From NCBI GenBank assembly GCA_017463365.1, contig JAFTPH010000026.1, positions 620 through 64,619 on the forward strand: a DNA stretch of 64,000 nucleotides. The letters run 5' to 3'. Of the stretch, positions 8,093 through 59,645 are shown piece after piece. Position 1 is the first letter of the stretch, and every line of letters begins with the position of its first letter. Under the pieces are notes generated by a model, which was given only the letters and a program-made list of their open reading frames with translations, searched no databases and was not told the DNA's origin. The translations under genes were made by a program, and so were the position numbers. Source of the stretch: Bacilli bacterium (lineage in GTDB: Bacteria > Bacillota_I > Bacilli_A > ML615J-28 > CAG-313).

Positions 8093-9568
8093 ATGAATAA
8101 AAAAACAGAACACCATAGTGGAATATTAATGCCAATTAGTTCTTTGCCTTCAAAATATGGGATTGGTAATTTTGGTAAAGATGCTTATAAGTTTGCTGAT
8201 TTTTTAGCAAAAACAAAACAAAAATATTGGCAAGTTTTACCACTAAATCCTACATCATATGGTGATAGCCCATATCAGTCTCCAGCTTCAGCTTCAGGAA
8301 ACCCATATTTTATCGATCCTGAAGTATTATATGAAGATGGTCTATTAACCAAAGAAGATTTAAAAGAGGCTATTAATAAAAATAAGCGTGTTGATTACGG
8401 ATGGCTATTTAATACTAGATATGATTTATTAAGAAAAGCTTTTTCAAGATTTAATCCAAATGATGATTATTTTGTATTCTGTAAAAATAATCAAGAATGG
8501 CTTGATGATTATGCTTTATTTATGAGCTTAAAAGTTCAACATGGTTATGCGGAATGGACAAGTTGGGAAAACGATTATCAAGATTACGAAAAAGCTAAGG
8601 AATTAAAAGAAAATTTTGAAGAAGAAATGAAGTATTGGCGTTTTATCCAATATGAATTTCATAAACAATGGGATAAATTACACCAATATGTTAAGAATTT
8701 AGGAATCAAAATTATTGGTGATATGCCAATTTATGTTGCACATGATAGTATGGATGTTTGGTGTAGTCCAGAAGATTTCTTGTTGGATGAAAAACATCAA
8801 CCTACACTTGTGGCTGGATGTCCTCCTGATGGTTTTTCACCTGATGGACAGTTATGGGGTAATCCAATTTATAATTGGGATAAAATGGAAAAAGATGGTT
8901 TTACATGGTGGAAAAAACGTATCAAAGAAAGCTTTAAACTTTATGATGTTTTAAGAATTGACCACTTTAGAGGATTTGCGGGATACTACGCAATTCCATT
9001 TGGTCATGAAACAGCAAGATTTGGTAGTTGGTATCATGCTCCAGGAATTGAATTATTTGATACTATTAAAAAGCATTTTCCAAAAGCAGAAATTATCGCT
9101 GAAGACTTAGGATTCATAACTGAAGATGTTAGAGAATTACTAGCTAAAACTGGTTTCCCTGGTATGAAAATTCTTCAATTTGCTTTCTATGATGATGATG
9201 CAGAATTCTTACCAAGAATGTTTAAAGATGAAAATTGTATTGTGTATACTGGTTCTCATGACTCTGACTGTACTAAAACTTGGTATCAAAATTTAAATGG
9301 CGATGCTAAGAAACGTTTCAAGAAAGAATGTCCAAAAAGAAAAAATCAAACTGGAACAGAAGCATTAATCGAATTTGCTTTAAACAGTAAAGCTTTTTTA
9401 GCAATCATTCCAATCCAAGATTATTTAGAATTAACTAATGATTTAGGTCGTATGAATACTCCAGCAGTTGCCTCAGGTAACTGGACATGGAGATTAAGTT
9501 CAAGATATGCGACTGATCGATTAATAAATAAAATTAGTAAACTTACTATTGACTCAAAACGTATATAA
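8093..9568 (+). CDS. malQ: 4-alpha-glucanotransferase (amylomaltase, GH77)
   Basis: N-terminus ...SGILMPISSLPSKYGIGNFGKDAYKFADFLAKTKQKYWQVLPLNPT is the canonical MalQ start. RBS AGGGAG before the ATG at 8093. The ORF track begins at an upstream TTG (8051). Confidence 0.9.
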   Translation: MNKKTEHHSGILMPISSLPSKYGIGNFGKDAYKFADFLAKTKQKYWQVLPLNPTSYGDSPYQSPASASGNPYFIDPEVLYEDGLLTKEDLKEAINKNKRVDYGWLFNTRYDLLRKAFSRFNPNDDYFVFCKNNQEWLDDYALFMSLKVQHGYAEWTSWENDYQDYEKAKELKENFEEEMKYWRFIQYEFHKQWDKLHQYVKNLGIKIIGDMPIYVAHDSMDVWCSPEDFLLDEKHQPTLVAGCPPDGFSPDGQLWGNPIYNWDKMEKDGFTWWKKRIKESFKLYDVLRIDHFRGFAGYYAIPFGHETARFGSWYHAPGIELFDTIKKHFPKAEIIAEDLGFITEDVRELLAKTGFPGMKILQFAFYDDDAEFLPRMFKDENCIVYTGSHDSDCTKTWYQNLNGDAKKRFKKECPKRKNQTGTEALIEFALNSKAFLAIIPIQDYLELTNDLGRMNTPAVASGNWTWRLSSRYATDRLINKISKLTIDSKRI

Positions 9569-9576
9569 AACAAACT

Positions 9577-9606
9577 AAAAAGCCGCATTAAACGGCTTTT
9601 ATTTTG
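9577..9606 (+). terminator. Terminator after malQ
   Basis: AAAAGCCGcattaaaCGGCTTTTATTTT. Confidence 0.8.
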
Positions 9607-9657
9607 CTATTTTTTGGTATAAGTGTTATAATTAAATATATAAATATGGAGTATGTT

Positions 9658-10230
9658 ATGAAGAAGTTAATTGCTGATATTGAAAATTATATACCTTTTA
9701 ATGAACAAGAAGTATCTGATAAAAAAGTAATTTTAAATTGGTTAAAAAAAGATATTGATGTTTTAACTAGAAATAATACAGATGCTCACCTTACTGGTTC
9801 AGCTTGGGTTGTAAGTCAAGACTTTAAGAAAATATTAATGGTTTATCATAATATTTTTGATTCATGGGCTTGGATTGGTGGACATGCTGATGGAGATAGT
9901 GATTTACTTAGAGTTGCTATTAAAGAAGTTAAAGAAGAAAGTGGCGTTGAACATATCGAAGTATTATCACCCGATATTTTCTCTTTAGAAGTATTATGTG
10001 TTGATGGACATATTAAAAGAGGAGAATATGTTTCTTCCCATGTTCATTTAAATGTTACTTACTTGTTAAGTGCTTCAACTAGTGATTGCTTGCGTATTAA
10101 ACCTGATGAAAATAGTGGTGTTGAATGGGTTAATATTGAAGATGTAAATGACAGAGTAACAGAAATTTGGATTAAAGAAAAAATATATTCAAAATTATTT
10201 AAGAAAGCAGAATTATTTAGTAAAGGGTAA
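9658..10230 (+). CDS. NUDIX hydrolase
   Basis: Nudix box GGHADGDSDLLRVAIKEVKEESGV (GX5EX7REUXEEXGU). Start chosen at the ATG with a GGAG spacer; upstream alternatives at 9646 and 9604. Confidence 0.75.
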   Translation: MKKLIADIENYIPFNEQEVSDKKVILNWLKKDIDVLTRNNTDAHLTGSAWVVSQDFKKILMVYHNIFDSWAWIGGHADGDSDLLRVAIKEVKEESGVEHIEVLSPDIFSLEVLCVDGHIKRGEYVSSHVHLNVTYLLSASTSDCLRIKPDENSGVEWVNIEDVNDRVTEIWIKEKIYSKLFKKAELFSKG

Positions 10231-43583: not shown

Positions 43584-43586
43584 TTA

Positions 43587-43612
43587 ATAGACCCTTAAGG
43601 GTCTATTTTTTA
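43587..43612 (+). terminator. Terminator after rpoC
   Basis: TAGACCCTTAAGGGTCTA followed by TTTTTT. Confidence 0.85.
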
Positions 43613-43627
43613 ATTATTATATTGAAA

Positions 43628-43656
43628 TTGACAAAAAACAGAATAATTAGTATAAT
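43628..43656 (+). promoter_or_regulatory. Consensus sigma-A promoter upstream of the 150-aa hypothetical gene
   Basis: TTGACA (43628-33), 17-nt spacer, TATAAT (43651-56). Confidence 0.65.
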
Positions 43657-43700
43657 TTAGTTAGTGTAGGGTAAATTTTAAAATTTATGGGAGGTTAAAA

Positions 43701-44153
43701 ATGGAAGTAATTGTTTTTTCGTCTTCAGGATGTGAATTAATTCAAAATGAAGAAAGCGTTAGTAGGGATTTAGATATAGATTATGATTTGAAATATGTTT
43801 GTTATAAATATAATATAAATAACAATGACCTATTTCAAATCAATGAAACTACTAATAGTTTTTTCTTGAGATTATTTGGCAATCTCTTGACATTATTAAT
43901 GATTGGTGGTATTCATAGTTCTGAGAATTTAAGGAATATTCAATATAATGCATATAAACAAAATAAAAAGCTTGCTAGCTTTATATTTATGCCTTTATTA
44001 AGAATGCGAGGCAAAATTAAAATTAAACCTATAAAATGTACTGATGATACAGTTGTTTGTATTTATTTATTAAAATCAAAAATTCCATTTATGGTAGATG
44101 TTTTTGATGGTGAAATAGAAATTATAGAAAATAAAAGAGGATTTAAGATATAA
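43701..44153 (+). CDS. Hypothetical protein (150 aa, no recognisable domain)
   Basis: ORF with RBS GGGAGG, its own consensus promoter and a downstream hairpin terminator (44206-44237). Cys-containing, one hydrophobic segment. Confidence 0.5.
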   Translation: MEVIVFSSSGCELIQNEESVSRDLDIDYDLKYVCYKYNINNNDLFQINETTNSFFLRLFGNLLTLLMIGGIHSSENLRNIQYNAYKQNKKLASFIFMPLLRMRGKIKIKPIKCTDDTVVCIYLLKSKIPFMVDVFDGEIEIIENKRGFKI

Positions 44154-44341
44154 ATTATTTTACATTTATTGATAAAATTGAAAACTTATAATAATTAATG
44201 ATACTGTTACCCATACCAATTTTGGTATGGGTATTTTAAATTGTTTCGAAAAAAGTAAAAAATGATGATATTTTTTTAAAATTATTTATTTCTTAACAAA
44301 AATATGGTATAATATAGAAAAAGAATAGAGAGGGTGAAAGT

Positions 44342-46633
44342 ATGTTTGCAAGTGTCATAATAGATAATGCTAGTAGTAATACGGATTATGAATTTGAATA
44401 TTTAGTACCAGAATATGCACTCGCATTCATCAAAGTAGGGTGTAGAGTAAAGGTTAAATTTGGAACTAGCGAACGTTTATGGATGGGGTATGTTATTGAT
44501 TTACATGAAGAATCTTTGTTTGAAGGGGATAAAAAAGAAATAATTGAGGTTTTAGATTTAGAACCATTAATTAATGAAGAACAATTAGTATTAAGTGAAT
44601 ATATCAAGAATGATACAATTTGTCCTCGCTCAAGAGTTTTAAATTTAATGATTCCTAGTGCTTTAAGATTAAAATCATCAAAATATTTAGTTACAGAAGA
44701 TGTAACAAAGCTTGATGCTAATTTAGCTATTTTATTTAAGGGTAAAAACACCTTAAAAATTACGAATGAGTTAGAAAGTCATAGTAGATTAATTAATAAA
44801 GCGTTAAAAGATGGTTTAATTAAAATAATGTATGATGCTAGTGATACACTAGCTAATCCTCAAATTACAAAGTATTTTATTAAGGAACAAGATTTTCAAA
44901 ATAAGTTATTTTTAGTTACTAATTCTTTAGAAATTGATTTTTTAAATTATTTAAAAAATCAAGAAGAACCATCATCTTTAAATGAAATAATTGAGAATTA
45001 TCCAATTAGTAGTTATCGTGTAAAAAAACTTGCTGAGGCAGGAATTATTGAAAAACAAAAATTCAGTAATATAAAACACAAAAAAAGAGAAGTAAAAGTT
45101 GATACTGAGTTAATTAAATTAAATGATAAATTTATTGAATTATTAAATGGTAGTAAAGAATTATTGTGGATGCCATCAAGTAATAATGAAGAATTAACGG
45201 TTATTTTGGAAATTCTTAAACAAGATAGTTTAAAAAATAAGAAGACGTTAATTTTAGTTCCAGATATTTTATCAAGTTATCGTTATCAAAGTTTAATTAG
45301 TTTAAATACTGATGCGAAAGTATTATGTTTAAATTCAGAAATTGGTAGTACAGAAAACTATGAAATATATGAACAAATAAGAAAAGAAAACTTCGATGTG
45401 ATGGTTACAACCCCAGTTGGAGCTTTATATCCATATCAAGATATAGGAACTATTTTGATAATTGACCAAGAAAGCGAAAACTATCGTAATGATCAAAGTC
45501 CAAGATATGATTTAAATGAAGTATTTAAATATCGTATTAAAAATATCGGACAAAGATTAATTTTCCATAGCTATGCGCCAACAATGAAGTGTTACGCAGA
45601 AAGCTTAACTATTTTACCGAAATTAGAATGTAATTTACCGAAAATTGACGTTGTTAATTTAAAAAATGAATTAATTATGGGAAATAAGAGTCCAATTTCA
45701 AGAGTATTACATAATGAAATTGAAAGAACTCTTAAAAGAAAAGGTAAAGTTTTACTTATTTTAAATAATAAAGGTTATAGTCAATCAGTTCTTTGTCGTA
45801 ATTGTGGTGAAGTAATTAAATGTGATGAATGTGATATACCATTACAATATCAAAAAGAAAAAGAAATTTTAGTTTGTCCAAAATGTGGTAAGCGTAAAGA
45901 TTTTACCGCATCTTGTCCAAAATGTGGAAGTAGTTTTATTCGCCATATTGGTCTTGGAATGGAAAAACTAAAAGAAGTTTTAGAAGAAGAATTTGAAGAT
46001 ATCAGAGTTGGGGTTTTAAAAGATTCTAATTATCGTGATTATGAAGAAGAAGTTTTAAAACTAAATGATGATATAAGTGATGTAATTATTAGTAGTGATA
46101 TATTTTCTCGTTCAATCATCAATGAAAAAATTGAACTTGTGGTAGTTGTTGCTTTAGACATTGTGACTAAATCACCAAGTTATCATGCGGGAGAAAGAGC
46201 GTATTCTTTATTAAAACATGCGTTAAATCATTTATCTAGTGAAGATCATAAACTAGTAATTCAAACCTATAATCCAGAGATTCCAGTATTAAAATATTTC
46301 TTGTTAGATGAATATGATAAATTCTTTATTGATGAATTAAGGGTACGTGAAATTGCCAAATTGGACCCAATTTATGAAGTAAATCGTATTTTTATTAAGA
46401 GTGAATATAAAGAAATGTATAAAACAGCCAACATAATTAAGAAACATTTATATAATACTGTTCGTCATAATATTCAAATATTAGGTCCAGCCTATAATAA
46501 ACAAGAAAGATGTGTACAATTACTAGTAAAACACCAACATAAAAATATTAATAATGTTTATCAACAAATATATAAACTTTATCAAAATTCTAAGACAATG
46601 ATTATTTTTGATAAATATCCAAGAAACATATAA
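44342..46633 (+). CDS. priA: Primosomal protein N' (PriA) orthologue with degenerate helicase ATPase motifs
   Basis: PriA-like N-terminus (VIIDNASSNTDYEFEYLVP...GCRVKVKFGTSERLWMGYVID). Two Zn-finger CxxC pairs (CRNCGEVIKCDECD...CPKCGKR...CPKCGSS). priA-fmt synteny. The Walker A position reads LLWMPSSNNEELTV (no GxGKT) and the DEEH position reads IIDQESEN. Confidence 0.8.
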   Translation: MFASVIIDNASSNTDYEFEYLVPEYALAFIKVGCRVKVKFGTSERLWMGYVIDLHEESLFEGDKKEIIEVLDLEPLINEEQLVLSEYIKNDTICPRSRVLNLMIPSALRLKSSKYLVTEDVTKLDANLAILFKGKNTLKITNELESHSRLINKALKDGLIKIMYDASDTLANPQITKYFIKEQDFQNKLFLVTNSLEIDFLNYLKNQEEPSSLNEIIENYPISSYRVKKLAEAGIIEKQKFSNIKHKKREVKVDTELIKLNDKFIELLNGSKELLWMPSSNNEELTVILEILKQDSLKNKKTLILVPDILSSYRYQSLISLNTDAKVLCLNSEIGSTENYEIYEQIRKENFDVMVTTPVGALYPYQDIGTILIIDQESENYRNDQSPRYDLNEVFKYRIKNIGQRLIFHSYAPTMKCYAESLTILPKLECNLPKIDVVNLKNELIMGNKSPISRVLHNEIERTLKRKGKVLLILNNKGYSQSVLCRNCGEVIKCDECDIPLQYQKEKEILVCPKCGKRKDFTASCPKCGSSFIRHIGLGMEKLKEVLEEEFEDIRVGVLKDSNYRDYEEEVLKLNDDISDVIISSDIFSRSIINEKIELVVVVALDIVTKSPSYHAGERAYSLLKHALNHLSSEDHKLVIQTYNPEIPVLKYFLLDEYDKFFIDELRVREIAKLDPIYEVNRIFIKSEYKEMYKTANIIKKHLYNTVRHNIQILGPAYNKQERCVQLLVKHQHKNINNVYQQIYKLYQNSKTMIIFDKYPRNI

Positions 46634-46648: not shown

Positions 46649-47563
46649 ATGTTAAAAATTGTTTTTATGGGAACACCATCATTTAGTGTTCCAATTTTAG
46701 AAGCGTTAATTAAAGAATATGATGTGGCGTTGGTTGTTACTCAACCGGATAAAGAAGTAGGAAGAAAAAGAGAAGTTGTTGCATCTCCTGTAAAGAAGTG
46801 TGCTTTAGAACATAATATTCCCGTTTTTCAACCTCAAAACATTCGAAAAGATTATCAACCAATTATTGATGCCAATCCTGATTTAATTGTTACTGCTGCG
46901 TTTGGACAAATTATTGGGACGAAGATTTTAAATTATCCAAAATACCGCTCAATAAACGTTCATGCTTCTTTACTTCCCAAATACCGAGGAGGTGCTCCAA
47001 TTCACTATTCCGTTATTAATGGTGATAAAGAAACCGGAGTTACAATCATGTATATGGAAAAAGCTATGGATGCGGGAGACATTTTAAGTCAAAGAGCAAT
47101 TCCGATTTTAGAAGAAGATACAACTGGTACAATGTTTGAAAAATTATCTTTGGTTGGTCGTGATTTATTAATGGAAACTATTCCAGCTTTAATCAAAGGT
47201 GAAATTACACCAATTAAACAAAATGAAGATGAAGTTACATATGCTTACAACATTACCGCAGAACAAGAAACTTTAGATTTAAACGAAGAAGCAAAAGTTT
47301 TAATTAATAAAATAAGAGGATTACTTCCTGCACCTGGAGCCAATATGGTTATTAAAGGTGATACTATCAAAGTATATCAAGCAAAAGTAAGTGAATTAAC
47401 ACATAATGCAAGTGTTGGAACAATTATTGGAAAAACTAAAAAGTATTTTAGTGTTGCTTGTGGTAATTCTACAGCTATTGATATCTATGAATTACAAGTG
47501 TCAGGTAAAAGAAGAATGATGGCCGCTGACTTTATTAATGGTGGGCTTGCTAAATACATGTAA
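46649..47563 (+). CDS. fmt: Methionyl-tRNA formyltransferase
   Basis: MLKIVFMGTPSFSVPILEAL...HASLLPKYRGGAPI (SLLP formyltransferase motif). 304 aa. Confidence 0.95.
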   Translation: MLKIVFMGTPSFSVPILEALIKEYDVALVVTQPDKEVGRKREVVASPVKKCALEHNIPVFQPQNIRKDYQPIIDANPDLIVTAAFGQIIGTKILNYPKYRSINVHASLLPKYRGGAPIHYSVINGDKETGVTIMYMEKAMDAGDILSQRAIPILEEDTTGTMFEKLSLVGRDLLMETIPALIKGEITPIKQNEDEVTYAYNITAEQETLDLNEEAKVLINKIRGLLPAPGANMVIKGDTIKVYQAKVSELTHNASVGTIIGKTKKYFSVACGNSTAIDIYELQVSGKRRMMAADFINGGLAKYM

Positions 47564-47575
47564 ATGAGGTGCTTT

Positions 47576-48109
47576 ATGAAACCTAAACTTTATTATTCGC
47601 GTGAAGAAATGTTTATTTTAAATCGTGATAAACTTTTAGAACGCGGAGTTACAATTGATGATATTAGTATCATTGCTTTTAATCAACAAAAACGATATTA
47701 TGAAAATGTTGAATATAATTTATGTAAAGAAAGTGTCGAAAAGATTTTATCTTTAAGAGATATTTTTCATTTATTACAATTGGGAGTTGAAATTGATAGA
47801 TTAGCAGAGGTTGGAGCATTTAATGGTCCAATTCAAGATATCATTCGCTATGATTTAGGGGTATTTGGTATTGATGAAATATTTGGTTTAGATATTGCGA
47901 GACTATATGGAGCGATTGGTCAAACTAACTTCGGAGATATTGATGTTAATAAACCTGGAATTGTTGAAAAATTAAATCATGATGGTAAAGGAGACAAAGA
48001 TAGCTGTCATACTTTCTTAGATGATATTGTTGGAGCTATTGCTGCCGCAGCATCAACTAGAGTATCTCAAATAATGAGTGAAAACGAAGCAGCTAGAAAA
48101 GATAATTAA
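47576..48109 (+). CDS. Hypothetical protein (~177 aa, Gly/Ala-rich C-terminus)
   Basis: ORF with AGGTG RBS (alternative ATG at 47564). No family recognised from sequence alone. Confidence 0.45.
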   Translation: MKPKLYYSREEMFILNRDKLLERGVTIDDISIIAFNQQKRYYENVEYNLCKESVEKILSLRDIFHLLQLGVEIDRLAEVGAFNGPIQDIIRYDLGVFGIDEIFGLDIARLYGAIGQTNFGDIDVNKPGIVEKLNHDGKGDKDSCHTFLDDIVGAIAAAASTRVSQIMSENEAARKDN

Positions 48110-50743: not shown

Positions 50744-51307
50744 ATGGATAAAAGTCAAATTATTAATAACGTATCTAAATTATTAAATGAAAATAGGTTT
50801 GAAGAAGCTAAGATGCTTATTCAAAGTGAGTATCCTCATGAACATATAGAAATTGAAAAACGATCATATACTCTTAAACAGAAAATGACTCAATTTCTTA
50901 AAGATGGTTTCATAGATAGATATACTGGACAAAGACTTGTTAATCCAGGAATGTTAAAAGTTATAACTTACTATTGTCCAAAAGAATTTCCATATGATCC
51001 TCATTGGAAAATGACCAAAACTCATATTGCTTACTGGAATTTGATACCTACTATTGATCATATTTTTCCAATTGCATTAGGAGGTATTGATGATTCTAGT
51101 AATTGGGTTACTACATCAATGAAAAATAATTCTATAAAAAATAATTATTCATTAGAGGAAATAAACTGGCATTTACACGAAAGTGGAAATTTGGATGATT
51201 GGGATGGATTAACAAAGTTATTTATTGAGATAGTTGAAAAGAATAATGATTTACTAAAAGATTCATATATAAAAAGCTGGTATAAAATTTCTAAAGATTT
51301 GATTTAA
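50744..51307 (+). CDS. HNH-endonuclease-family protein
   Basis: IDHIFPIALGGIDDSSNWVTTSMKNNSIKNN resembles the HNH core (H-N...N). Confidence 0.55.
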   Translation: MDKSQIINNVSKLLNENRFEEAKMLIQSEYPHEHIEIEKRSYTLKQKMTQFLKDGFIDRYTGQRLVNPGMLKVITYYCPKEFPYDPHWKMTKTHIAYWNLIPTIDHIFPIALGGIDDSSNWVTTSMKNNSIKNNYSLEEINWHLHESGNLDDWDGLTKLFIEIVEKNNDLLKDSYIKSWYKISKDLI

Positions 51308-51322
51308 TAAAAAATTATAAAG

Positions 51323-51352
51323 TGAAACTCCTTATTTAATAAGGGGTTTTTC
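51323..51352 (+). terminator. Terminator after the HNH gene
   Basis: AAACTCCTTAtttaaTAAGGGGTTTTTCC. Confidence 0.7.
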
Positions 51353-51476
51353 CATATAATAATAATTTTCTCACTTTTGTTTAATTGAAGTCATCATTTT
51401 GTTTATGGTAAAATATTTTAAAGAACTGTATAATGATGGTGTAACGTTACAAAAATATAATACAAGGAGATAATTA

Positions 51477-52574
51477 ATGAATTTAGGTTTAAGAATTAAA
51501 GAATTACGTATTGAACATGATTTAACTCAAGAAGATTTAGCCGAACAACTAGGAGTATCAATTCAAGCCATATCTAGATGGGAAAATAGTATTACATGTC
51601 CGGATATTTCCGTTTTACCAATACTAGCTAATATGTTTGATGTGACTGTTGATTATTTATTAGATGTAGATATTAAGAAAAAACAACAAGAAATCAATGA
51701 AATAGAGGCTAAATATAATAAGAATTGTAATGTTGGAAAAGTAGAAGATAATGAAAAATTATTGTTAGAAGGGTTAAGTAAATATCCTAATAATTGGGTA
51801 TTAAAATCATCTTTATTAGACACTTATTTTACTTATGTTTGTAGATATGAAAGAGATGATCCAAAATATCAAGAATATATAGACAAAACAATTAAATTAG
51901 GTAATGAAATATTAAATAAATGTGTTTTAGATAATAAAAGATATTTTGCTATGCAAATACTGGTATATACTTACAGATGGACTAATGAATTAGAAAAAGC
52001 CAAAGAAATTGTCAAAAAATTACCAAGTTTTTATGTAACTAATGATTGGTTATATCCAGAAGTTGTTACTGGGTTTGAAAGAATCAAAGCTGTTGAAAGA
52101 AATATAAATTCCATAGTAGAATTATTTTATAGTGCTTTAACATCAACATATGGAAGAAGAGAAGTAGGACTTAGAGCCAAAGAACTTTTAAAATTTAAAA
52201 CATTCTTAGATTTAGTATATGAAGATGGCGACTATGGATTTTATCACATAAGACTATTTGATTTATATTTTATGTGTGCTAGTGATCAAGCTCAAATAAA
52301 AAATAAAGATGAAACGCTAAAGTATTTAAATTTAGCTATTTATTATGGAGAAATTTTTGATAAAATAAAAGATGAAGGTAAAGTTATTAAACATACAAGT
52401 TTTTTAGTAGATTGTTTAGAAAACAATCCGAATAGTTGGACATTCTCAGGTGATTGTGTTGCTTTAAAAAGAGCAGTTGATTATTTAGAAAAGGATAAAT
52501 ATGATTTCTTGAGAGAAGATGAAGAGTTTAAAAAAATTAAAGAAGAGTTAATTAATAAATTGACAAATAAATAG
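51477..52574 (+). CDS. XRE-family HTH transcriptional regulator with C-terminal helical-repeat (TPR/RNPP- or Rgg-like) domain
   Basis: HTH MNLGLRIKELRIEHDLTQEDLAEQLGVSIQAISRWENS. ~300-aa C-terminal alpha-helical region. RBS AAGGAG. The 3' end is embedded in repeat copy 1. Confidence 0.8.
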   Translation: MNLGLRIKELRIEHDLTQEDLAEQLGVSIQAISRWENSITCPDISVLPILANMFDVTVDYLLDVDIKKKQQEINEIEAKYNKNCNVGKVEDNEKLLLEGLSKYPNNWVLKSSLLDTYFTYVCRYERDDPKYQEYIDKTIKLGNEILNKCVLDNKRYFAMQILVYTYRWTNELEKAKEIVKKLPSFYVTNDWLYPEVVTGFERIKAVERNINSIVELFYSALTSTYGRREVGLRAKELLKFKTFLDLVYEDGDYGFYHIRLFDLYFMCASDQAQIKNKDETLKYLNLAIYYGEIFDKIKDEGKVIKHTSFLVDCLENNPNSWTFSGDCVALKRAVDYLEKDKYDFLREDEEFKKIKEELINKLTNK

Positions 52575-52658
52575 AGATATTTTACACTAACTAAAGTATT
52601 GCTTGAGTTCATTCAAAAACCTCTTTATTGTTTTTGAAAGATAAGAATTATATAAATT
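52548..52658 (+). repeat. 111-bp direct repeat, copy 1 (regulator 3' end + promoter-like element + 9-bp inverted repeat)
   Basis: ~97% identical to 58759-58869 (4 mismatches in 111 bp). Contains TTGACA-17-TACACT and TTCAAAAAC-n9-GTTTTTGAA. Confidence 0.9.
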
Positions 52659-52725
52659 TTTTTAGATGAATAAAGTTTGTAAAATAATACTTAACTAATA
52701 AGTTCAAAATAAATAAACGAAATAC

Positions 52726-52754
52726 TTTACATTTATTATTTATTTTGATATAAT
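52726..52754 (+). promoter_or_regulatory. Near-consensus sigma-A promoter for the small peptide gene
   Basis: TTTACA (52726-31), 17-nt spacer, TATAAT (52749-54). GAAAGGAG RBS then ATG at 52798. Confidence 0.65.
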
Positions 52755-52797
52755 GACTTTAGCAAATATAAAAATTACTTGAAAGGAGTTGATTACT

Positions 52798-52863
52798 ATG
52801 AAAAATATAAATGAACATAAATTAGAAGTAATCAGTTTCTTTTGTGTAACTGTAGTTTGTTAA
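52798..52863 (+). CDS. Small peptide ORF (21 aa, MKNINEHKLEVISFFCVTVVC), a candidate signalling-peptide or RiPP-like precursor
   Basis: ATG 7 nt after GAAAGGAG. Consensus promoter upstream. Polar N-terminus and hydrophobic Cys-containing C-terminus ending in Cys. Hairpin with U-tract downstream (52896-52930). Located directly 3' of an RNPP/Rgg-like regulator and 5' of exporter genes. Not in the supplied ORF track because it is under 60 aa. Confidence 0.5.
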   Translation: MKNINEHKLEVISFFCVTVVC

Positions 52864-52895
52864 GTTTTATTAATTATAATATACTTTTAAAATTT

Positions 52896-52930
52896 AAACA
52901 CTTCTAATTTATAGGAGTGTTTTTTATTTG
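52896..52930 (+). terminator. Hairpin with U-tract between the peptide ORF and downstream genes (possible partial terminator/attenuator)
   Basis: AAACACT-tctaatttatagg-AGTGTTT followed by TTTTATTT. Confidence 0.5.
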
Positions 52931-52960
52931 CTAAATATTTAATTAGGAGATTAAAAGTAT

Positions 52961-54541
52961 ATGAATTTATTAAAAAATTATTTAGCTAAATTACATGCTC
53001 AAAATAAAAATAGAATTGATGAACTATATTTAGACAGGTTAAGTAAAATAGATGATTACAAAATATTAGAATATGAATTTTTAGGATTGAAATTTTGGTT
53101 TTTTGGAACATCTCATAGAAATCCTGAAAAACTTATTTTAAATATTGAAATTCCTAAAACATATATTAGTGATAATCTAAATACTGATAATGTAGTAGCA
53201 TTTGAACATTACGTTTTAAAAATTTTATATGAAGACGTTAATAAAATTAATGATGAATATTTTAACAAAAATAAGAGTACTAGAGAAAAGCCATATGTGG
53301 AGTCCCAAAAAACAAATGAAATTATAATTAAAAGAAATGGTATTACTTACGATTTTAAAAAGAAGGTATTTCATTATAAATTAATATTTGTTGTTCCACT
53401 TATAAATAATACTTCTATTAATGGTAAAAGTACTTTTAAGGCAATCAAAGAAATTATTTCTTTAGTATCAAAAAAATTAGAGTTTATTAACAAAGATGAA
53501 TTAAATAAAAATGTTGATATTTACTTAAAGCAACAAGAAATTAGAAGATACATTAGGGAAAATAATTTAGTTACGTTTATTGCTAATGATAGTATTTTAC
53601 CAAGAAAAGAAGGAACTAATAAACCATTAGAAGATGCAACTAAATTTATATCACCTAAGTCACTTGAAACATTAATCAAGTTAAATGATGGTACAAAGAT
53701 TTTAGGAATGGGAATTAAAAAAGGAATAACTGTTATTACTGGTGGTGGTTATTCGGGTAAAACTACTTTACTTGAAGCAATTGAAACGGGTGTATATGAT
53801 CATGAGTATGGGGATGGAAGAGAATATTGTATTACTGATGATTCTGCCATGAAGATTTGCGCTGAAGATGGTAGATATGTCACAAATACTGATATTTCAC
53901 CATTTTATAAGTATATTCCATCAAGTGAAGGGATTCATAACTTTTCAACGCAAGATGCAAGTGGAAGTATTTCACAAGCAGTAAATATTATAGAAGCAAT
54001 TAATTGTGAAAGTAAGTTACTTTTAATTGATGAAGATAGAAGTGCAACTAATTTTATGATAAGAGATTATAATATGCATTTAGTTGTGAAAAATGATCCA
54101 ATAATACCATTTACTAATAGGATTAAAGAAATCTATAATGATTATGACGCGTCAACGATATTAGTAATAGGTGGTTCAAGTGTATATTTGAATTATGCTG
54201 ATTGTGTAATTTTGTTAGAAGATTATTTGCCTAAAGATATAACTGGTTTTATTAAAGGATTAGATTTGATGAAAGTTGTAGAGGAGCCAGATAAGACAAA
54301 TTTTATATCAAAAAGAAAAATAGCTAATTTTAAATCAAAAGAAATGTTTAACTATTTTAATTTTGTTGCAAATGATAAAAGTAAAAATATTGTGATTGAT
54401 GAATATCAAGCTGATATCACGTTTATATCAACATTAATTTCAGATAGTCAAATAAACTATTTAGCTTATATAATGCAGTTAATACTATCTAGAAGTGAAT
54501 TTTGGGGTGATGATATTATTTATAGCATTATGTATAAATAA
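52961..54541 (+). CDS. Stand-alone 'ABC-class ATPase' protein (PF09818-like P-loop NTPase of unknown function)
   Basis: 526 aa, no TM. Walker A in the C-terminal half (GGGYSGKTTLLEAIETG) and Walker B-like LLLIDEDRSATNF. Long N-terminal non-ATPase region. RBS TTAGGAG. Confidence 0.6.
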   Translation: MNLLKNYLAKLHAQNKNRIDELYLDRLSKIDDYKILEYEFLGLKFWFFGTSHRNPEKLILNIEIPKTYISDNLNTDNVVAFEHYVLKILYEDVNKINDEYFNKNKSTREKPYVESQKTNEIIIKRNGITYDFKKKVFHYKLIFVVPLINNTSINGKSTFKAIKEIISLVSKKLEFINKDELNKNVDIYLKQQEIRRYIRENNLVTFIANDSILPRKEGTNKPLEDATKFISPKSLETLIKLNDGTKILGMGIKKGITVITGGGYSGKTTLLEAIETGVYDHEYGDGREYCITDDSAMKICAEDGRYVTNTDISPFYKYIPSSEGIHNFSTQDASGSISQAVNIIEAINCESKLLLIDEDRSATNFMIRDYNMHLVVKNDPIIPFTNRIKEIYNDYDASTILVIGGSSVYLNYADCVILLEDYLPKDITGFIKGLDLMKVVEEPDKTNFISKRKIANFKSKEMFNYFNFVANDKSKNIVIDEYQADITFISTLISDSQINYLAYIMQLILSRSEFWGDDIIYSIMYK

Positions 54542-54701
54542 TATTAAAATTTTAGATGAATCAATACAACAAATTATTTCACAGTATAATTTTAAGTGTG
54601 ATGTATGGTTTGACGATATACGTAAACAAGATATCATAAGTTGTATAAATAGATTAAGAGGAATTCGTTTTGAATTTATAAGTTAAAGGAGAGTGATACT
54701 G

Positions 54702-56495
54702 ATGAATTTAGATAAACCAAATATTATAAAAAACTTCTTTTACTCACTAAAGAAGATTTATAAAATTGATAAAATATTTGTTTTTGAGACTATAATACAT
54801 ACAATAATTTCTGCATTAGTTGTTTTTATGTATCCATATATATTAAAGATGGCAATAGAAGCTATTGAACAAAATTTAAGTTTTAAAGAATTAATACTAA
54901 AAGTACTTATTGTTGTAGTAAGTGTAATGATTTTAGTTTTCTTTAATCAGGCATGTTGGAGAGATCAATCTTATAGAGCGCGAAAATTATCTGCGCTATT
55001 TACAAGAGAATATCATTTAAACTCATTAAAAACTGATTATGAGAAATTTGAACAACCAGAATCACAAGATGCTTTTGAAAAAGGATCACGAGCACTAGGA
55101 ACAAGAAGTGGATTTATAGGTTTATATACAAATATGTTTACAACTATTAGTAAAGTAATTACCTTTATAATTGGTTGTGGAATAATACTAAGAGTAAGTA
55201 TTTGGTTGATAGTAATAATTGTTTTATTAGCAATTATAAAATTATTATTAACAAGTTATAATACTAAAAAAGAAAAAACAAACTTTCATGATAAAACACC
55301 TGGTATATGGAGAAAAATTAGTTATACAAATAATATATCAAAAAATTTGACAATAGGAAAAGATTTACGTATTTATGAAATGGATAAGTTTATAGATATG
55401 GAAAGACAAAAAACTATTGATGAATATATGAAACTTTATAAAAAAGAAGAAATTAGATCTAATATATTAGGCACAATAATTAATTTAATACATATATTAG
55501 ATGAAGTTGCATTATATTCATTTATGCTTTATGAAGTAATTAACAATAATATGAGTATTGCTGATTTTACTTTTATTATTGCATCAATTAGAACATTATC
55601 AAGATCGTTGACAGTTATAATAAATAATTTTAGCAATAACTTATCATATAGTTTACAGGTTAATGATTATCGAAAATTTGAAACATTAGATTTATCATTT
55701 AATGGTGATACTAAACCTCTTGTAGCAGATGAGGTAGAAATTGAATTTAAAAATGTAAGCTATAGCTACTATATGCAAGAAGGATATACACTAAAGAATA
55801 TCTCGTTTAAAATTAAGAAAGGCGAACGAATAGCACTTGTTGGTCATAATGGTGCAGGGAAAACAACTCTAATAAAACTTATTTGTGGATTTTATCATCC
55901 AACTGAAGGAGAAATCCTTATTAATGGAGTAAATATAAATGAGATAGATAGAGAAAGCTTAATAAAACTAATTGCTCCTGTTTTCCAAGATTCTAATCAT
56001 TATGCGGTCAGCATAAAAGAAAACATTGCTATGGAGACAATTGGGAATATAGATGATGAAAAATTATATATGTCACTTAATCTCGCTGGCTTATTACAAA
56101 AAATAGAAAGTTTAAAAAATGGTGTTGATACAATTATAACTCGTGATATGGATGATACAGGTGTTGAATTATCAGGTGGAGAGAGTCAAAAATTATCGAT
56201 TGCAAGAGCTATTTACAAGAATGCTCCATTTGTAATTTTAGATGAACCAACTAGTGCACTTGATCCTATAGCAGAATCTGAATTGTATATGAATTTGAAT
56301 AAAATTATTAATAATCATTCAGCTATATTTATTTCTCATAGACTTTCATCAACAAAATTTTGTGACAGAATATTCTTCTTAGAAAAAGGAGAATTGCTTG
56401 AAGTAGGCACACATAATGAATTAATGAGTATAGATAGTGAATATAAGAAACTATTTAATATGCAAGCAGAATATTATAAGGAGGTAGATGAATAA
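54702..56495 (+). CDS. ABC transporter permease/ATP-binding protein (half-transporter, exporter type), subunit 1
   Basis: N-terminal 6-TM domain. Walker A GHNGAGKTT, signature LSGGESQK, Walker B ILDEPTSALD, H-loop FISHRL. Confidence 0.85.
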   Translation: MNLDKPNIIKNFFYSLKKIYKIDKIFVFETIIHTIISALVVFMYPYILKMAIEAIEQNLSFKELILKVLIVVVSVMILVFFNQACWRDQSYRARKLSALFTREYHLNSLKTDYEKFEQPESQDAFEKGSRALGTRSGFIGLYTNMFTTISKVITFIIGCGIILRVSIWLIVIIVLLAIIKLLLTSYNTKKEKTNFHDKTPGIWRKISYTNNISKNLTIGKDLRIYEMDKFIDMERQKTIDEYMKLYKKEEIRSNILGTIINLIHILDEVALYSFMLYEVINNNMSIADFTFIIASIRTLSRSLTVIINNFSNNLSYSLQVNDYRKFETLDLSFNGDTKPLVADEVEIEFKNVSYSYYMQEGYTLKNISFKIKKGERIALVGHNGAGKTTLIKLICGFYHPTEGEILINGVNINEIDRESLIKLIAPVFQDSNHYAVSIKENIAMETIGNIDDEKLYMSLNLAGLLQKIESLKNGVDTIITRDMDDTGVELSGGESQKLSIARAIYKNAPFVILDEPTSALDPIAESELYMNLNKIINNHSAIFISHRLSSTKFCDRIFFLEKGELLEVGTHNELMSIDSEYKKLFNMQAEYYKEVDE

Positions 56496-58267
56496 TGAAA
56501 CTAAAAACAATTAAGAGAAATCTAAAATATTTTATTCCTTTACTTCTAAAGATTAGTCCAATGTCAATTATTATAATGGTATTAGTGGCATTTATAAATT
56601 CAATTAGTAATATAGCCTGGGTCGTGTTTCCAAAGTTGATATTAGATGAACTTTTTTATACAAAAAATTATGATAAATTATTCATTATTGTTATTGCATT
56701 TATTTTAATTCAATTAATATGGAGAGTATTAGGCGATATATTTAATAGTATGAATTATTATATTATACGAAAAGCAGATTTTAAAATAGATAAATTATTT
56801 AACGAAAAGATTGCTCATATTGATTACTTTCATATAGAAGATCCACAATTTAATGATGAATTAAGTTATGCGAAAAATTGTTTAAGCCAATATAGTAATG
56901 GGATTTATTCGGTAACTTGGGCAATTAAAGAATTTGTTGAAAATATAATATCAATATTAAGTGTTGTTGGAATAATTATAGCAAGTGGAGAATTCTTTAT
57001 TATACTTGTAACATTGATAGGTGTGATATTAAATACAATCTTTTATGGAAAATTTCAAAAAATAGACGAAGAGTTTAATAATGGAACAGTTCGATTTTTT
57101 AGAAAACAATGGTATTATGGCAATAGTATGATGGCATTTAGAAGTCAAAAGAATTTGAGGATGTATAGTGCAGATAATTTGATAAAAAACAGAAGTGATG
57201 AAGTAAATAATGATCTATTTAAAATAGAAGAAGAAACAAACAAAAAAAGAAATAAAGTAAGTTTATTTGAAACTAGTTTTAGCTATTTATTTACTACTTT
57301 TATAACAATAATAATTCTTGCATTTGCGGTATATTATAAAAATTTAGAATTAACTGTTTTTACAATGCTATATGGTGCAGTTCAAACACTAGATAATGGA
57401 ATTGCAAATTTAATATATTCATCAAAAAAATATTATCAAGATTGTGTTTATCAAGAAAACTTTATTAATTTAATGGAAATTGAATCTATATTTAAAGATG
57501 GTAAAAAAGCTATAGAAAATATAGAAACAATTGAATTTAAGAATGTTAGTTTCAAGTATCCAAGATGTGATTATTATGTACTCAAAAACTTAAGTTTCAA
57601 AATTGATTCTAAAGAAAAAATATCATTAGTAGGTTTAAATGGTAGTGGTAAAACAACGATAATCAAATTGATTTGTAGATTCTTTGATGTTAATGAAGGA
57701 GAAATATTAATCAATGGAGAAAACATAAAGTTATATAAATATGAAGACTATATGAAATGTTTAGCCATTGTATTTCAAGATTTTAAAATTATATCATTTA
57801 GTGTTAAAAACAATATTGCAATACTTGATGAAAATAAAGAAAAACTATATGATGTTTTAAAAAGAAGTGAAGCATTAGAAAGAATAAATGAATTACCTGA
57901 TAAAGAAAATACTTATATTAATAAATGGTTTGATAAAAAAGGTGTTGAATTCTCTGGTGGAGAACTTCAAAAATTTGCTTTGGCTAGAGCATTATATAAA
58001 GATGCAGATTTTGTTGTTTTAGATGAGCCAACAAGTGCGTTAGACCCTGTGAGTGAGTCAAAAATCTATTATCATTTCAAAGATGTTGTGGGAGAAAAAT
58101 TGACATTATTTATTTCACATAGGCTATCAAGTTGTATATTTAGTGATAAAATACTAGTACTTGATGGATATAATATTGTTGAAACTGGAACTCATGAAGA
58201 ACTTATGAAAAATAAAGAAGGCTTGTATAGAAAAATGTTTATGGCTCAAGCAGAATATTATAATTAG
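56495..58267 (+). CDS. ABC transporter permease/ATP-binding protein (half-transporter), subunit 2
   Basis: Start overlaps the previous stop (ATGA). Strong RBS AAGGAGG. Walker A GLNGSGKTT, signature FSGGELQK, Walker B VLDEPTSALD. Confidence 0.85.
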   Translation: MKLKTIKRNLKYFIPLLLKISPMSIIIMVLVAFINSISNIAWVVFPKLILDELFYTKNYDKLFIIVIAFILIQLIWRVLGDIFNSMNYYIIRKADFKIDKLFNEKIAHIDYFHIEDPQFNDELSYAKNCLSQYSNGIYSVTWAIKEFVENIISILSVVGIIIASGEFFIILVTLIGVILNTIFYGKFQKIDEEFNNGTVRFFRKQWYYGNSMMAFRSQKNLRMYSADNLIKNRSDEVNNDLFKIEEETNKKRNKVSLFETSFSYLFTTFITIIILAFAVYYKNLELTVFTMLYGAVQTLDNGIANLIYSSKKYYQDCVYQENFINLMEIESIFKDGKKAIENIETIEFKNVSFKYPRCDYYVLKNLSFKIDSKEKISLVGLNGSGKTTIIKLICRFFDVNEGEILINGENIKLYKYEDYMKCLAIVFQDFKIISFSVKNNIAILDENKEKLYDVLKRSEALERINELPDKENTYINKWFDKKGVEFSGGELQKFALARALYKDADFVVLDEPTSALDPVSESKIYYHFKDVVGEKLTLFISHRLSSCIFSDKILVLDGYNIVETGTHEELMKNKEGLYRKMFMAQAEYYN

Positions 58268-58498
58268 TTAACTATAAATTTTTGTGCTATACTATTAAAG
58301 TAAAAATGATATTAGGAGGTGCATTTATATAATTTATAGAACGTTAATTGTGTTAGTTATGATATTATTTATGATACCTCTTGTAGAGGGTAATCGAGAT
58401 AAAGAAGATATAATAGATTTTTAAATAATATAAAAAAAGGTAAGATTATTAAATATCAAAATATGTAATTAATATAAATAGTATTAAAATTTATAAAA

Positions 58499-58540
58499 TT
58501 AAGAAATGTAACTATCTTAACTGGTAGTTACATTTCTTAA
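58499..58540. repeat. Perfect 16-bp inverted repeat with 10-bp spacer in a 640-bp non-coding region
   Basis: TTAAGAAATGTAACTA-tcttaactgg-TAGTTACATTTCTTAA. Confidence 0.8.
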
Positions 58541-58758
58541 TTCTCTATTAATCTTAAAATAACTGGAAGTAAAAATGTAATGATAATTAAGATTTATAAT
58601 ATATTTCTTAATTATTAACTAATTTTATATCATTTTTAGGAGTAAAATAAAAAATAGGTATATTTAAAAATCATTAAAATAGGTGTAAATCTTTAAATTA
58701 AGAGAAAAATTATCTTGTTTATAGTATTATAAGTGTTTTCTATTACATACAAACAATA

Positions 58759-58869
58759 TTAATTAATAAATTGACAAATAAATAGAGATATTTTATACTA
58801 ACTAAAGTAGTGCTTGAGTTCATTCAAAAACCTCTTTATTGTTTTTGAAAGATAAGTATTATATAATTT
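58759..58869 (+). repeat. 111-bp direct repeat, copy 2 (carries a pseudo-3'-end ...ILINKLTNK* of a regulator gene)
   Basis: ~97% identical to 52548-52658. Contains TTGACA-17-TATACT (better -10 than copy 1) and the same 9-bp inverted repeat. Lies ~40 bp upstream of the ATG at 58911. Confidence 0.9.
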
Positions 58870-58910
58870 AAGTGTAAATGATCATTTAAATAAAATATAA
58901 GGAGAATAAT

Positions 58911-59645
58911 ATGGCTTTTAACGAACAAATACAAAAACTAAGAAAAGAATGTGGAATGACTCAAAATGAACTTGCTGAAAAACTATTTATTAGTTATCAA
59001 GCAGTAAGTCAATGGGAAAATGGTAATACAAAACCTGATATTGACTTATTACCAAAACTTGCTGAAATATTTAATGTATCAATTGATGAATTATTTGGTA
59101 GAAAAACTGTTAAATGTAATTTAACTAATGTAGAAGAAAATACTTTATATTTTGTTATTGCAACCTCAGATGAAATTATGGGAATAATGGATTTAGAAGA
59201 ATTAAAGAAAAAGCAAAATGAAGTAAAAGTTACTATTGAAGGAGATACTTTAAATGTTGTAAGTTCATCTACTGTAACTATAAAAGGTAATGTTCAAGGT
59301 AATGTTGATGCCAATCAAGATGTTAATACTTCAGCTATTGGTGGTAATGTTAGAGCAGGTTGTGATATTAATTGTGCTAATATTACAGGGAATGCTAGCG
59401 CAGGTTGTGATATTTCTTGTGCGAATATTAGTGGAAACGTTGCTGCTGGATGCGAACTTAATTGTTCGGATATTAGAGGAAATGTTTCAGTAGGTGGGAA
59501 TCTAACTTGTGAAAAAATTGAGGCTGATACTGTTAAAGCTGGCGGTATAATTTATTGTAATAAAGAAATAAAAGCTAATAAAATAGAAACTAATAATACA
59601 GTAGAGAGTAAAAATAAAACAAGTAAAATTACTATTGAAATGTAA
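58911..59645 (+). CDS. XRE-family HTH protein fused to a C-terminal Cys-rich 15-residue-repeat (beta-helix/bactofilin-DUF4097-like) domain
   Basis: HTH LRKECGMTQNELAEKLFISYQAVSQWENG. C-terminal tandem repeats GNVRAGCDINCANIT / GNASAGCDISCANIS / GNVAAGCELNCSDIR / GNVSVGGNLTCEKIE. RBS TAAGGAG. Confidence 0.75.
   Translation: MAFNEQIQKLRKECGMTQNELAEKLFISYQAVSQWENGNTKPDIDLLPKLAEIFNVSIDELFGRKTVKCNLTNVEENTLYFVIATSDEIMGIMDLEELKKKQNEVKVTIEGDTLNVVSSSTVTIKGNVQGNVDANQDVNTSAIGGNVRAGCDINCANITGNASAGCDISCANISGNVAAGCELNCSDIRGNVSVGGNLTCEKIEADTVKAGGIIYCNKEIKANKIETNNTVESKNKTSKITIEM

Follow-up and report, generated by a model that had tools for sequence, protein, structure and literature searches.

The open reading frame (ORF) at positions 44342-46633 of the window, which is the whole 64,000-nucleotide stretch of the Bacilli bacterium contig JAFTPH010000026.1 analysed here, encodes an orthologue of the primosomal protein PriA in which the residues that bind and hydrolyse ATP are, by every alignment made, comprehensively absent. 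The loss is shared by a clade of PriA proteins from uncultured gut bacteria, and the gene has been retained under selection. The protein is probably an ATPase-dead scaffold for fork recognition, acting as a selected, ATP-independent sensor of forks and D-loops that would nucleate the Gram-positive primosome.

The product is a PriA orthologue by descent and architecture, and the assignment does not stem from misalignment. An earlier sequence-only reading of this DNA had placed the ORF on the forward strand with an ATG start and a length of 763 amino acids (aa), and had named it PriA; both statements hold, the second on the PF17764 domain, eight zinc cysteines and an adjoining downstream fmt gene. 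The match to PF17764 (PriA 3′ DNA-binding domain, 3′BD) has an E-value of 1.4e-17 and 63.8 bits against a Pfam cutoff of 22.7. Two NCBIfam PriA models were also matched, NF004066 over aa 2-743 (E 1.9e-99, 334.1 bits) and TIGR00595 (E 5.3e-67, 226.5 bits), and a phmmer search against all chains in the PDB gave significant E-values for PriA only (E. coli and Klebsiella, E ∼2e-36). The two NCBIfam scores are below their curated cutoffs (813 and 230.35, respectively), and it is because of this shortfall that the sub-clade containing the window protein (P0001, P0302) is not named as PriA but is annotated as 'hypothetical protein' in GenBank, while the basal members P0239 and P0244 still carry the name 'primosomal protein N′'. 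The GenBank entry with the identical sequence reads 'MAG: hypothetical protein IJX78_01430 [Bacilli bacterium]'. The gene, its upstream signals and the domains of the product are as follows.

44305-44313, forward strand: promoter-like element of the extended −10 type, TGgTATAAT, upstream of priA, a consensus match only
44328-44337, forward strand: strong Shine-Dalgarno sequence GAGAGGGTGA, read from the sequence, ending 5 nt ahead of the priA ATG
44342-46633, forward strand: priA orthologue encoding the 763-aa PriA pseudohelicase, whole coding sequence with ATG start and stop codon included
44342-44656, forward strand: 3′BD, aa 1-105, matched by PF17764; no other domain is as conserved in the clade (mean identity 0.50)
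44657-45151, forward strand: winged-helix (WH) domain and linker, aa 106-270, with approximate bounds from AlphaFold2 secondary structure and Foldseek
45152-45601, forward strand: RecA-like lobe 1 (HD1), aa 271-420, fold kept and catalytic motifs erased
45479-45511, forward strand: equivalent of motif IIa and the aromatic-rich loop (ARL), N380-Y-R-N-D-Q-S-P-R-Y-D390, aligned with E. coli S326-H336
45602-45787, forward strand: RecA-like lobe 2 (HD2), first part, aa 421-482
45788-45934, forward strand: cysteine-rich region (CRR) with four CxxC pairs, aa 483-531
45935-46291, forward strand: RecA-like lobe 2, second part, aa 532-650, with former motifs V and VI
46292-46633, forward strand: C-terminal domain (CTD), aa 651-763, covered by the NF004066 alignment of aa 2-743 and with a predicted local distance difference test (pLDDT) score of ∼90 in the AlphaFold2 model

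The promoter-like element and GAGAGGGTGA are both located 3′ of a terminator-like hairpin (44208-44233) that closes the preceding gene, orf150. On the opposite strand, a 121-aa ORF (44386-44751, reverse strand) overlaps the 3′BD region of priA and has a sub-threshold match to DUF7765 (E 5e-4, 20.5 bits against a cutoff of 27); this ORF is most likely spurious, arising in AT-rich DNA.

Motif positions were taken from three alignments, namely phmmer, MAFFT with 88 homologues, and L-INS-i including PriA of E. coli K-12 [NC_000913.3], and the three were concordant. Per-residue counts for the clade were made over 69 full-length homologues. Three of the former motor motifs are located as follows.

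45173-45199, forward strand: former Walker A motif (P-loop), P278-S-S-N-N-E-E-L-T286 opposite E. coli G224-V-T-G-S-G-K-T-E232
45461-45472, forward strand: former Walker B motif (motif II), I374-D-Q-E377 opposite E. coli D320-E-E-H323 in ungapped alignments
46217-46243, forward strand: former motif VI, H626-ALNHLSSE-634 for QVAGRAGRA, with both arginine fingers gone

Alignment with E. coli PriA confirmed the motif positions on which the sequence-only reading was built, and Walker A is missing as it had claimed, PSSNNEELT standing at the position of GVTGSGKTE in all three alignments. The canonical Walker A residues are found in the clade at G281 in 0/69, G283 in 0/69, K284 in 8/69 and T285 in 0/69 sequences. 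For the DEEH box, the claimed loss of catalytic residues was correct and the register given, 'DQES', was off by one; the hydrophobic-strand-D-E catalytic pair is absent from the protein in either register. The position of the Walker B aspartate is occupied by L, I or M in 67 of the 69 homologues and by Asp in none. Beyond the losses named in the sequence-only reading, the Q motif is gone too, with Q replaced by V, I or A, and in the window protein motif Ib has changed from GTRSA to TTPVG (in the clade, GxRSA to TTPxG), motif III from GSATP to HSYAP, and motif V from GTQMLAKG to S584-S-D-I-F-S-R-S. The two arginines of motif VI remain in 1/69 and 8/69 sequences. The degeneration first noted in this one protein is thus common to all 69 full-length homologues. 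A search by regular expression for intact motifs elsewhere in the protein found GxxxxGK[ST] in none of 75 clade members, the window protein included, compared with 18 of 19 canonical PriAs, and GRxGR likewise in 0/75 compared with 17/19. Misalignment, or a cryptic P-loop elsewhere in the protein or in the 75 clade members, is ruled out by these counts together with the agreement of three aligners. The losses are read straight from the sequences, and chance plays no part in them. The former motif positions instead carry residues that are specific to the clade and nearly invariant in it: P278 (57/69), E or Q at 283 (68/69), N331 (66/69), T356 (67/69), D375 (66/69), E377 (64/69) and N380 (64/69).

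In a word-indexed search, homologues P0001 to P0075 (to ∼31% identity) had no DEAD or ResIII Pfam matches, and those from P0076 onward were canonical. A scan of one genome per species gave the variant in at least 28 GTDB species, all of them uncultured gut metagenome-assembled genomes (MAGs). They carry the labels Bacilli bacterium, 'uncultured Mollicutes', 'Staphylococcus sp. CAG:324', 'Erysipelotrichaceae bacterium' or 'Bacillales UBA1245', and the samples were of human, goat, sheep, water deer, rabbit and other origin. An assignment to the GTDB order RFN20 was considered and dropped, as a search of the literature tied neither 'Staphylococcus sp. CAG:324' nor the other MAGs to that order. 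When 1.84 billion representative proteins were searched with a profile and the matches classified by motif, ∼40 clusters (50% identity) lacked all three of motifs I, II and VI, and no mosaic intermediates were seen among the classified matches. In a neighbour-joining (NJ) tree, all degenerate members of these ∼40 clusters fall in one clade nested among canonical low-GC PriAs. Monophyly was recovered in 200/200 bootstrap replicates with all columns, in 200/200 with the 3′BD, WH, CRR and CTD only, and in 200/200 with the lobes only. Because the grouping is equally supported when the helicase lobes are removed, the clade is not an artefact of convergent motif loss, and on these trees the motor loss is of single origin. 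There are two deep sub-branches, one with 'IIGT' at motif V and the other, which includes the window protein, with the NDQSPRY loop; the catalytic residues are missing from both. The nearest canonical relatives include the PriAs of Acholeplasma and Paracholeplasma brassicae, with motifs intact (e.g. WP_030004495). The Acholeplasmatales appeared as the exact sister group in the full-data NJ tree, and this placement was dropped on its weak support (98/200 bootstraps with full data, 10/200 without the lobes).

Two further sequences outside the clade are of note. P0093 (JGI metagenome, 716 aa) is a second degenerate PriA that is unrelated to the clade and has a Candidatus Neomarinimicrobiota PriA as its nearest named relative. 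It has GPENERKA for GVTGSGKT and VEEEH for IDEEH and has lost motif VI, with motifs Ia and Ib kept, and may be a further, independent pseudohelicase lineage. P0171 (Acholeplasma sp. and Acholeplasmatales MAGs, 768 aa), a canonical neighbour of the clade, keeps Walker A (GPPASGKT) and DEAH, and its motif VI, GRI--RN, is without the second arginine finger. This erosion hints that the constraint on the PriA motor may be relaxed across a wider Mollicutes-related group.

The loss of catalytic residues has not been accompanied by any predicted loss of fold. An AlphaFold2 model built from a 35-sequence clade alignment has a mean pLDDT of 86.2, a predicted template modelling (pTM) score of 0.78 and no segment below 50. 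The top Foldseek matches in the PDB are full-length PriA structures (4NL4, 8FAK chain H and 6DGD; E 8e-42 to 1e-40), aligned over ∼800 columns with template modelling (TM) scores of 0.64-0.79, and the next family, Mfd, follows at E ∼1e-11. The complete six-domain PriA architecture is therefore predicted to be kept despite the loss of the catalytic residues. PF18074 (PriA_C) was not detected in the 763-aa protein by the Pfam scan; that the WH domain and CTD are both present is implied by the full-length Foldseek alignments and by the match of NF004066 over aa 2-743.

An intact priA ORF of 763-811 aa is present in 27/27 readable species. The ratio of nonsynonymous to synonymous substitution rates (dN/dS), estimated by NG86 for six of the closer species pairs, is 0.095, 0.042, 0.155, 0.172, 0.172 and 0.184 for priA, compared with 0.044-0.110 for fmt in the same pairs. 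Values for the lobes are 0.03-0.20 (HD1) and 0.03-0.24 (HD2), and dN/dS is below 0.3 in every priA domain with the exception of one noisy estimate for the CRR (49 codons). The gene, lobes included, is under purifying selection, and with the catalytic residues absent, the description of the protein as ATPase-dead but retained, already part of the sequence-only reading, stands. In the clade alignment, 31 columns are invariant and more than 60 are nearly so. At one locus, L028 (Bacillales bacterium UBA1245 [DBWF01000026.1]), priA appears as four overlapping ORFs (5045-7298) and rlmD is also broken (8755-10163); a pseudogene was considered at this locus and rejected, as the breaks in both genes are runs of N (412 N in the 10-kb contig).

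The distribution of conservation along the protein differs from that in canonical PriAs. At matched divergence (mean pairwise identity of 0.41 for the clade and 0.42 for canonical sequences), mean identities in the clade and in canonical PriAs are 0.50 and 0.34 for the 3′BD, 0.46 and 0.28 for the CTD, and 0.46 and 0.47 for the CRR, whereas those of the two lobes are 0.43 and 0.37 in the clade against 0.54 and 0.56. As judged from these identities, constraint has moved from the motor lobes to the 3′BD, the CRR, the CTD and the fork-junction loop. The lowest conservation within the clade is in the WH and linker part (0.27-0.34).

The retained residues include the DNA-contact elements of canonical PriA. 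In the 3′BD, Y20 and G41 are found in 69/69 and K65 in 66/69 clade sequences, and E19 is at the position of E. coli D17, where 66/69 members have an acidic residue; D17 of E. coli PriA is described as crucial to recognition of the 3′ end (PMC4129139). The ARL equivalent, N380-Y-x-N-D-Q-S-P-R-Y-D390, is the most conserved element of lobe 1, with at least 64/69 at nearly all positions (Y381 68/69, N383 66/69, D384 66/69, Q385 68/69, P387 69/69, R388 68/69 and Y389 64/69). Its NDQSPRYD segment is aligned with the E. coli ARL, Y327 to Y335, and resembles the canonical low-GC sequence ...SES-SPRYD.... Residues Q330 and E331 of E. coli PriA crosslink to the fork junction (PMC5175346), and in the cryo-EM structure of a PriA complex the ARL is wedged in that junction (PMC10175261). 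The four CxxC pairs of the CRR (C485/488, C494/497, C512/515 and C525/528) are predicted to bind two zinc ions, and weak zinc-ribbon Pfam matches were found in this region. All eight cysteines are invariant in the clade (69/69) and present in 17-18 of 18 canonical sequences.

[quoted passage not shown] It is because these nucleotide-independent contact elements have stayed the most constrained that an ATP-independent sensor specific to the structure of abandoned forks and of D-loops is proposed. In the ancestor common to the clade the superfamily 2 (SF2) motor would have been inactivated and all ATP-binding and hydrolysis motifs then overwritten, the gene being inherited vertically. [quoted passage not shown] The bound PriA would then nucleate DnaD, followed by DnaB and then DnaI with the replicative helicase. 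Unwinding of the nascent lagging strand would fall to other helicases, or restart would occur only at forks with a lagging-strand gap. We infer the absence of ATPase activity, the retention of fork binding and the nucleation of a primosome. A role as a primosome-loading scaffold is plausible by analogy with B. subtilis and because a DnaD homologue is encoded on the contig of a basal clade member (see below); it is proposed also because the E. coli priA300 allele (K230R) supports restart without ATPase activity, assembling primosomes and serving PriA-PriB restart with neither ATPase nor helicase (PMC5778457).

Several observations weigh against this proposal. The gene is the fastest evolving of its block, at ∼2 times the rate of its neighbours, with 72% identity to the related locus L001 compared with 85-98%, and dN/dS of 0.18 compared with 0.03-0.10. 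It is also AT-enriched at codon positions 1 and 2 (GC1/GC2 of 0.39/0.26, neighbours 0.45-0.50/0.29-0.38), and from this and the faster rate constraint on the gene is relaxed. The alignment column of Klebsiella R697, which belongs to the pocket for the SSB tail, is a gap in the clade, where the CTD alignment is unreliable; nor do low-GC canonical PriAs conserve this column. No gene for DnaD, DnaB, DnaI, SSB or a replicative helicase was found in the 64-kb window when nearly all ORFs of at least 100 aa were searched with NCBIfam and Pfam. Finally, the loci were viewed over ∼20 kb around each gene, which leaves room for a second, canonical priA elsewhere in the genomes.

A more specific, and unlikely, form of the proposal is that the erased ATP site has been rebuilt, the near-invariant residues locking the RecA lobes in one conformation to give a constitutive, nucleotide-independent adaptor. 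The locked conformation would possibly be a fork-bound-like state with the docking face of the CRR exposed. If this were true, Bacillus-type restart through DnaD, DnaB and DnaI would need no PriA motor, which would settle a question left open by studies in B. subtilis.

The same residues could be read differently. The protein may have taken on a new role as a binder of branched DNA outside replication restart, such as a fork cap, a polymerase block or a repair adaptor, with the former ATP site as a new interaction surface. The near-invariance of P278, E/Q283, N331, T356, D375, E377 and N380 is unlike random decay, the lobes are still under purifying selection, and the absence of priA from mycoplasmas (PMC3313985) means that PriA-free restart is possible in related lineages. 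However, conservation is highest in the parts with which canonical PriA recognises forks and docks its partners, the gene has stayed in its ancestral operon position, and motor-dead PriAs are documented in restart (PMC5778457, PMC4504706), so that a new role is unlikely and the restart scaffold is preferred.

The genes around priA bear on another alternative, that the motor-less protein is a degenerate extra paralogue and that an active PriA of the canonical kind has its gene elsewhere in the genome. Two features of the neighbourhood are the following.

46649-47563, forward strand of the window: fmt, encoding methionyl-tRNA formyltransferase, directly downstream of priA (TIGR00460, 320.9 bits against a cutoff of 201.5)
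2022-2657 of locus L031 (Logan SRR15311598 contig carrying the basal degenerate member P0106): DnaD homologue

The order rpoC-priA-fmt-pgpA-like-sdaA-rlmD, or its core priA-fmt-pgpA, is kept in 28/28 related loci, and a canonical priA of the Paracholeplasma type occupies the same priA-fmt-pgpA slot in one contig. The basal degenerate member P0106 is found in the context gmk-rpoZ-priA-fmt-pgpA-sdaA-rlmD, which we take to be the classical Bacillus neighbourhood. The DnaD homologue (PF21984 DnaD_N and PF07261 DnaB_2, 211 aa) lies 3.3 kb upstream of the P0106 priA, so at least one clade member encodes the expected partner of PriA. The gene order argues for the window gene being in the ancestral priA slot, as an orthologue rather than a paralogue. 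An extra paralogue is favoured only by the ∼20-kb view of each locus and is very unlikely, given that the degenerate gene holds the ancestral slot in all 28 species, that the canonical Paracholeplasma-type gene holds the same slot and the basal member its gmk-rpoZ-priA-fmt context, that the clade forms one lineage among low-GC PriAs, as vertical descent predicts, and that the search of 1.84 billion proteins did not bring up any canonical sister sequence from these gut MAG sources.

It is more improbable still that the protein is a cryptic ATPase, using non-canonical residues or intact motifs missed through misalignment. Some members do have a D-E-E triplet near motif II (E at position 376 in 20/69), and a second, weak nucleotide site has been proposed for E. 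coli PriA (PMC5778457). Against this, the Gly, Lys and Thr of Walker A and the Asp of Walker B have disappeared along with the Q motif and the two arginine fingers, the three alignments agree and neither intact motif occurs in the 75 members, and the single substitution K230R already abolishes the activity of E. coli PriA (PMC5778457). A decaying pseudogene without function is barely credible: although priA evolves faster than the rest of its block, is enriched in AT at the first two codon positions and is a 'hypothetical protein' at NCBI, the ORF is intact and full-length in every readable species over divergence to ∼30% identity, dN/dS is 0.04-0.18, 31 columns are invariant, the fold is predicted with confidence, and the sole apparent fragmentation (L028) is due to runs of N.

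A motor-deficient PriA that is natural and retained is known from Deinococcus-Thermus. PriAs of this group have GRT in place of GKT and poor motifs I and II, and in the purified D. radiodurans protein neither ATPase nor unwinding activity could be measured. This protein binds ssDNA with a Kd of 215 nM and forks with a Kd of 108 nM, affinities close to normal, and contacts DnaB (Lopper et al. 2015, PMC4504706). The clade described here is similar in having non-consensus motifs I and II in a natural, retained protein, and in the role suggested for it, that of a restart factor without a motor. In contrast to the recognisable P-loop of the Deinococcus-Thermus proteins, the whole P-loop has been replaced in the clade, together with the Asp of Walker B, the Q motif, motif Ib and both motif VI arginines. 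The clade also differs in belonging to a lineage of gut Bacilli within the group that uses DnaD, DnaB and DnaI. Its origin appears to be independent of that of the Deinococcus-Thermus pseudohelicase, because it is nested among Bacilli and Acholeplasmatales low-GC PriAs with intact motifs; the NJ tree contained no Deinococcus-Thermus sequence.

The E. coli variants K230R and K230A/D are engineered, ATPase-dead laboratory mutants that differ at one residue, their motor being intact apart from that, and have a defect in the PriA-PriC route. The loss in the clade is by contrast natural, ancient, spread over several motifs and fixed clade-wide. Canonical Bacillota PriAs, such as those of B. subtilis and S. 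aureus, share with the window protein the six domains, the zinc cysteines, the 3′BD residues, a similar ARL and the priA-fmt order, but retain motifs Q, I, Ia, Ib, II, III, V and VI and act as ssDNA-dependent ATPases and 3′-5′ helicases, whereas the window protein lacks every catalytic residue and falls short of the NCBIfam cutoffs. The mycoplasmas have lost priA entirely (PMC3313985). The clade resembles Mycoplasma in representing fast-evolving, Mollicutes-related Bacilli with relaxed replication-restart machinery; Mycoplasma has deleted the gene, whereas the clade has kept a full-length, selected, motor-less protein.

Other parts of the window were also annotated. Downstream of fmt is a gene for a PgpA-family protein of 181 aa (47564-48109, forward strand; PF04608, with a weak sub-threshold CobZ match), which is the most conserved gene of the block after rpoC (68-92% identity across 28 species) and is linked to priA-fmt in the Paracholeplasma-type contig too. 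Between rpoC and priA (region 43584-44341), the 150-aa orf150 (43701-44153, forward strand) has a perfect sigma-70 consensus promoter, TTGACA-17-TATAAT (43628-43656), a ribosome-binding site and the terminator hairpin at 44208-44233. The product of orf150 has no Pfam or NCBIfam match, the gene is absent from all 28 related loci, and the gap between rpoC and priA is 758 bp in the window and 137 bp in L001; orf150 looks like a lineage-specific inserted cassette. A block at 50744-59645 has a low GC content (0.24-0.26, compared with 0.30-0.35 for core genes) and looks like accessory DNA. It contains a weak HNH-like ORF (50744-51307), two genes for RstR-like helix-turn-helix repressors (51477-52574 and 58911-59645), a gene for a P-loop protein of the PF09818 ABC_ATPase family (52961-54541) and two ABC exporter genes (54693-58267).

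In a full-text search of the literature, PriA as a pseudohelicase was found only in the Deinococcus work and in papers citing it, and the motor-less clade is unreported. The concept itself is already known from the D. radiodurans pseudohelicase and from E. coli priA300 acting without ATPase, and will be no surprise to PriA specialists; the clade is a second and more radical natural case. It also marks a blind spot in annotation, in that automated surveys of gene presence and absence would score these genomes as lacking PriA. The proteins are ready material for complementation and reconstitution, by which the open question for Bacillus-type restart is directly testable. The clade looks intermediate in a series of reduction that runs from canonical PriA in Bacillus and Acholeplasma, through the motor-less form found here, to the absence of PriA in Mycoplasma. 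As a natural experiment, the retention of PriA after loss of its motor suggests that the core function of the protein is the recognition of forks and the nucleation of the primosome, and not unwinding.

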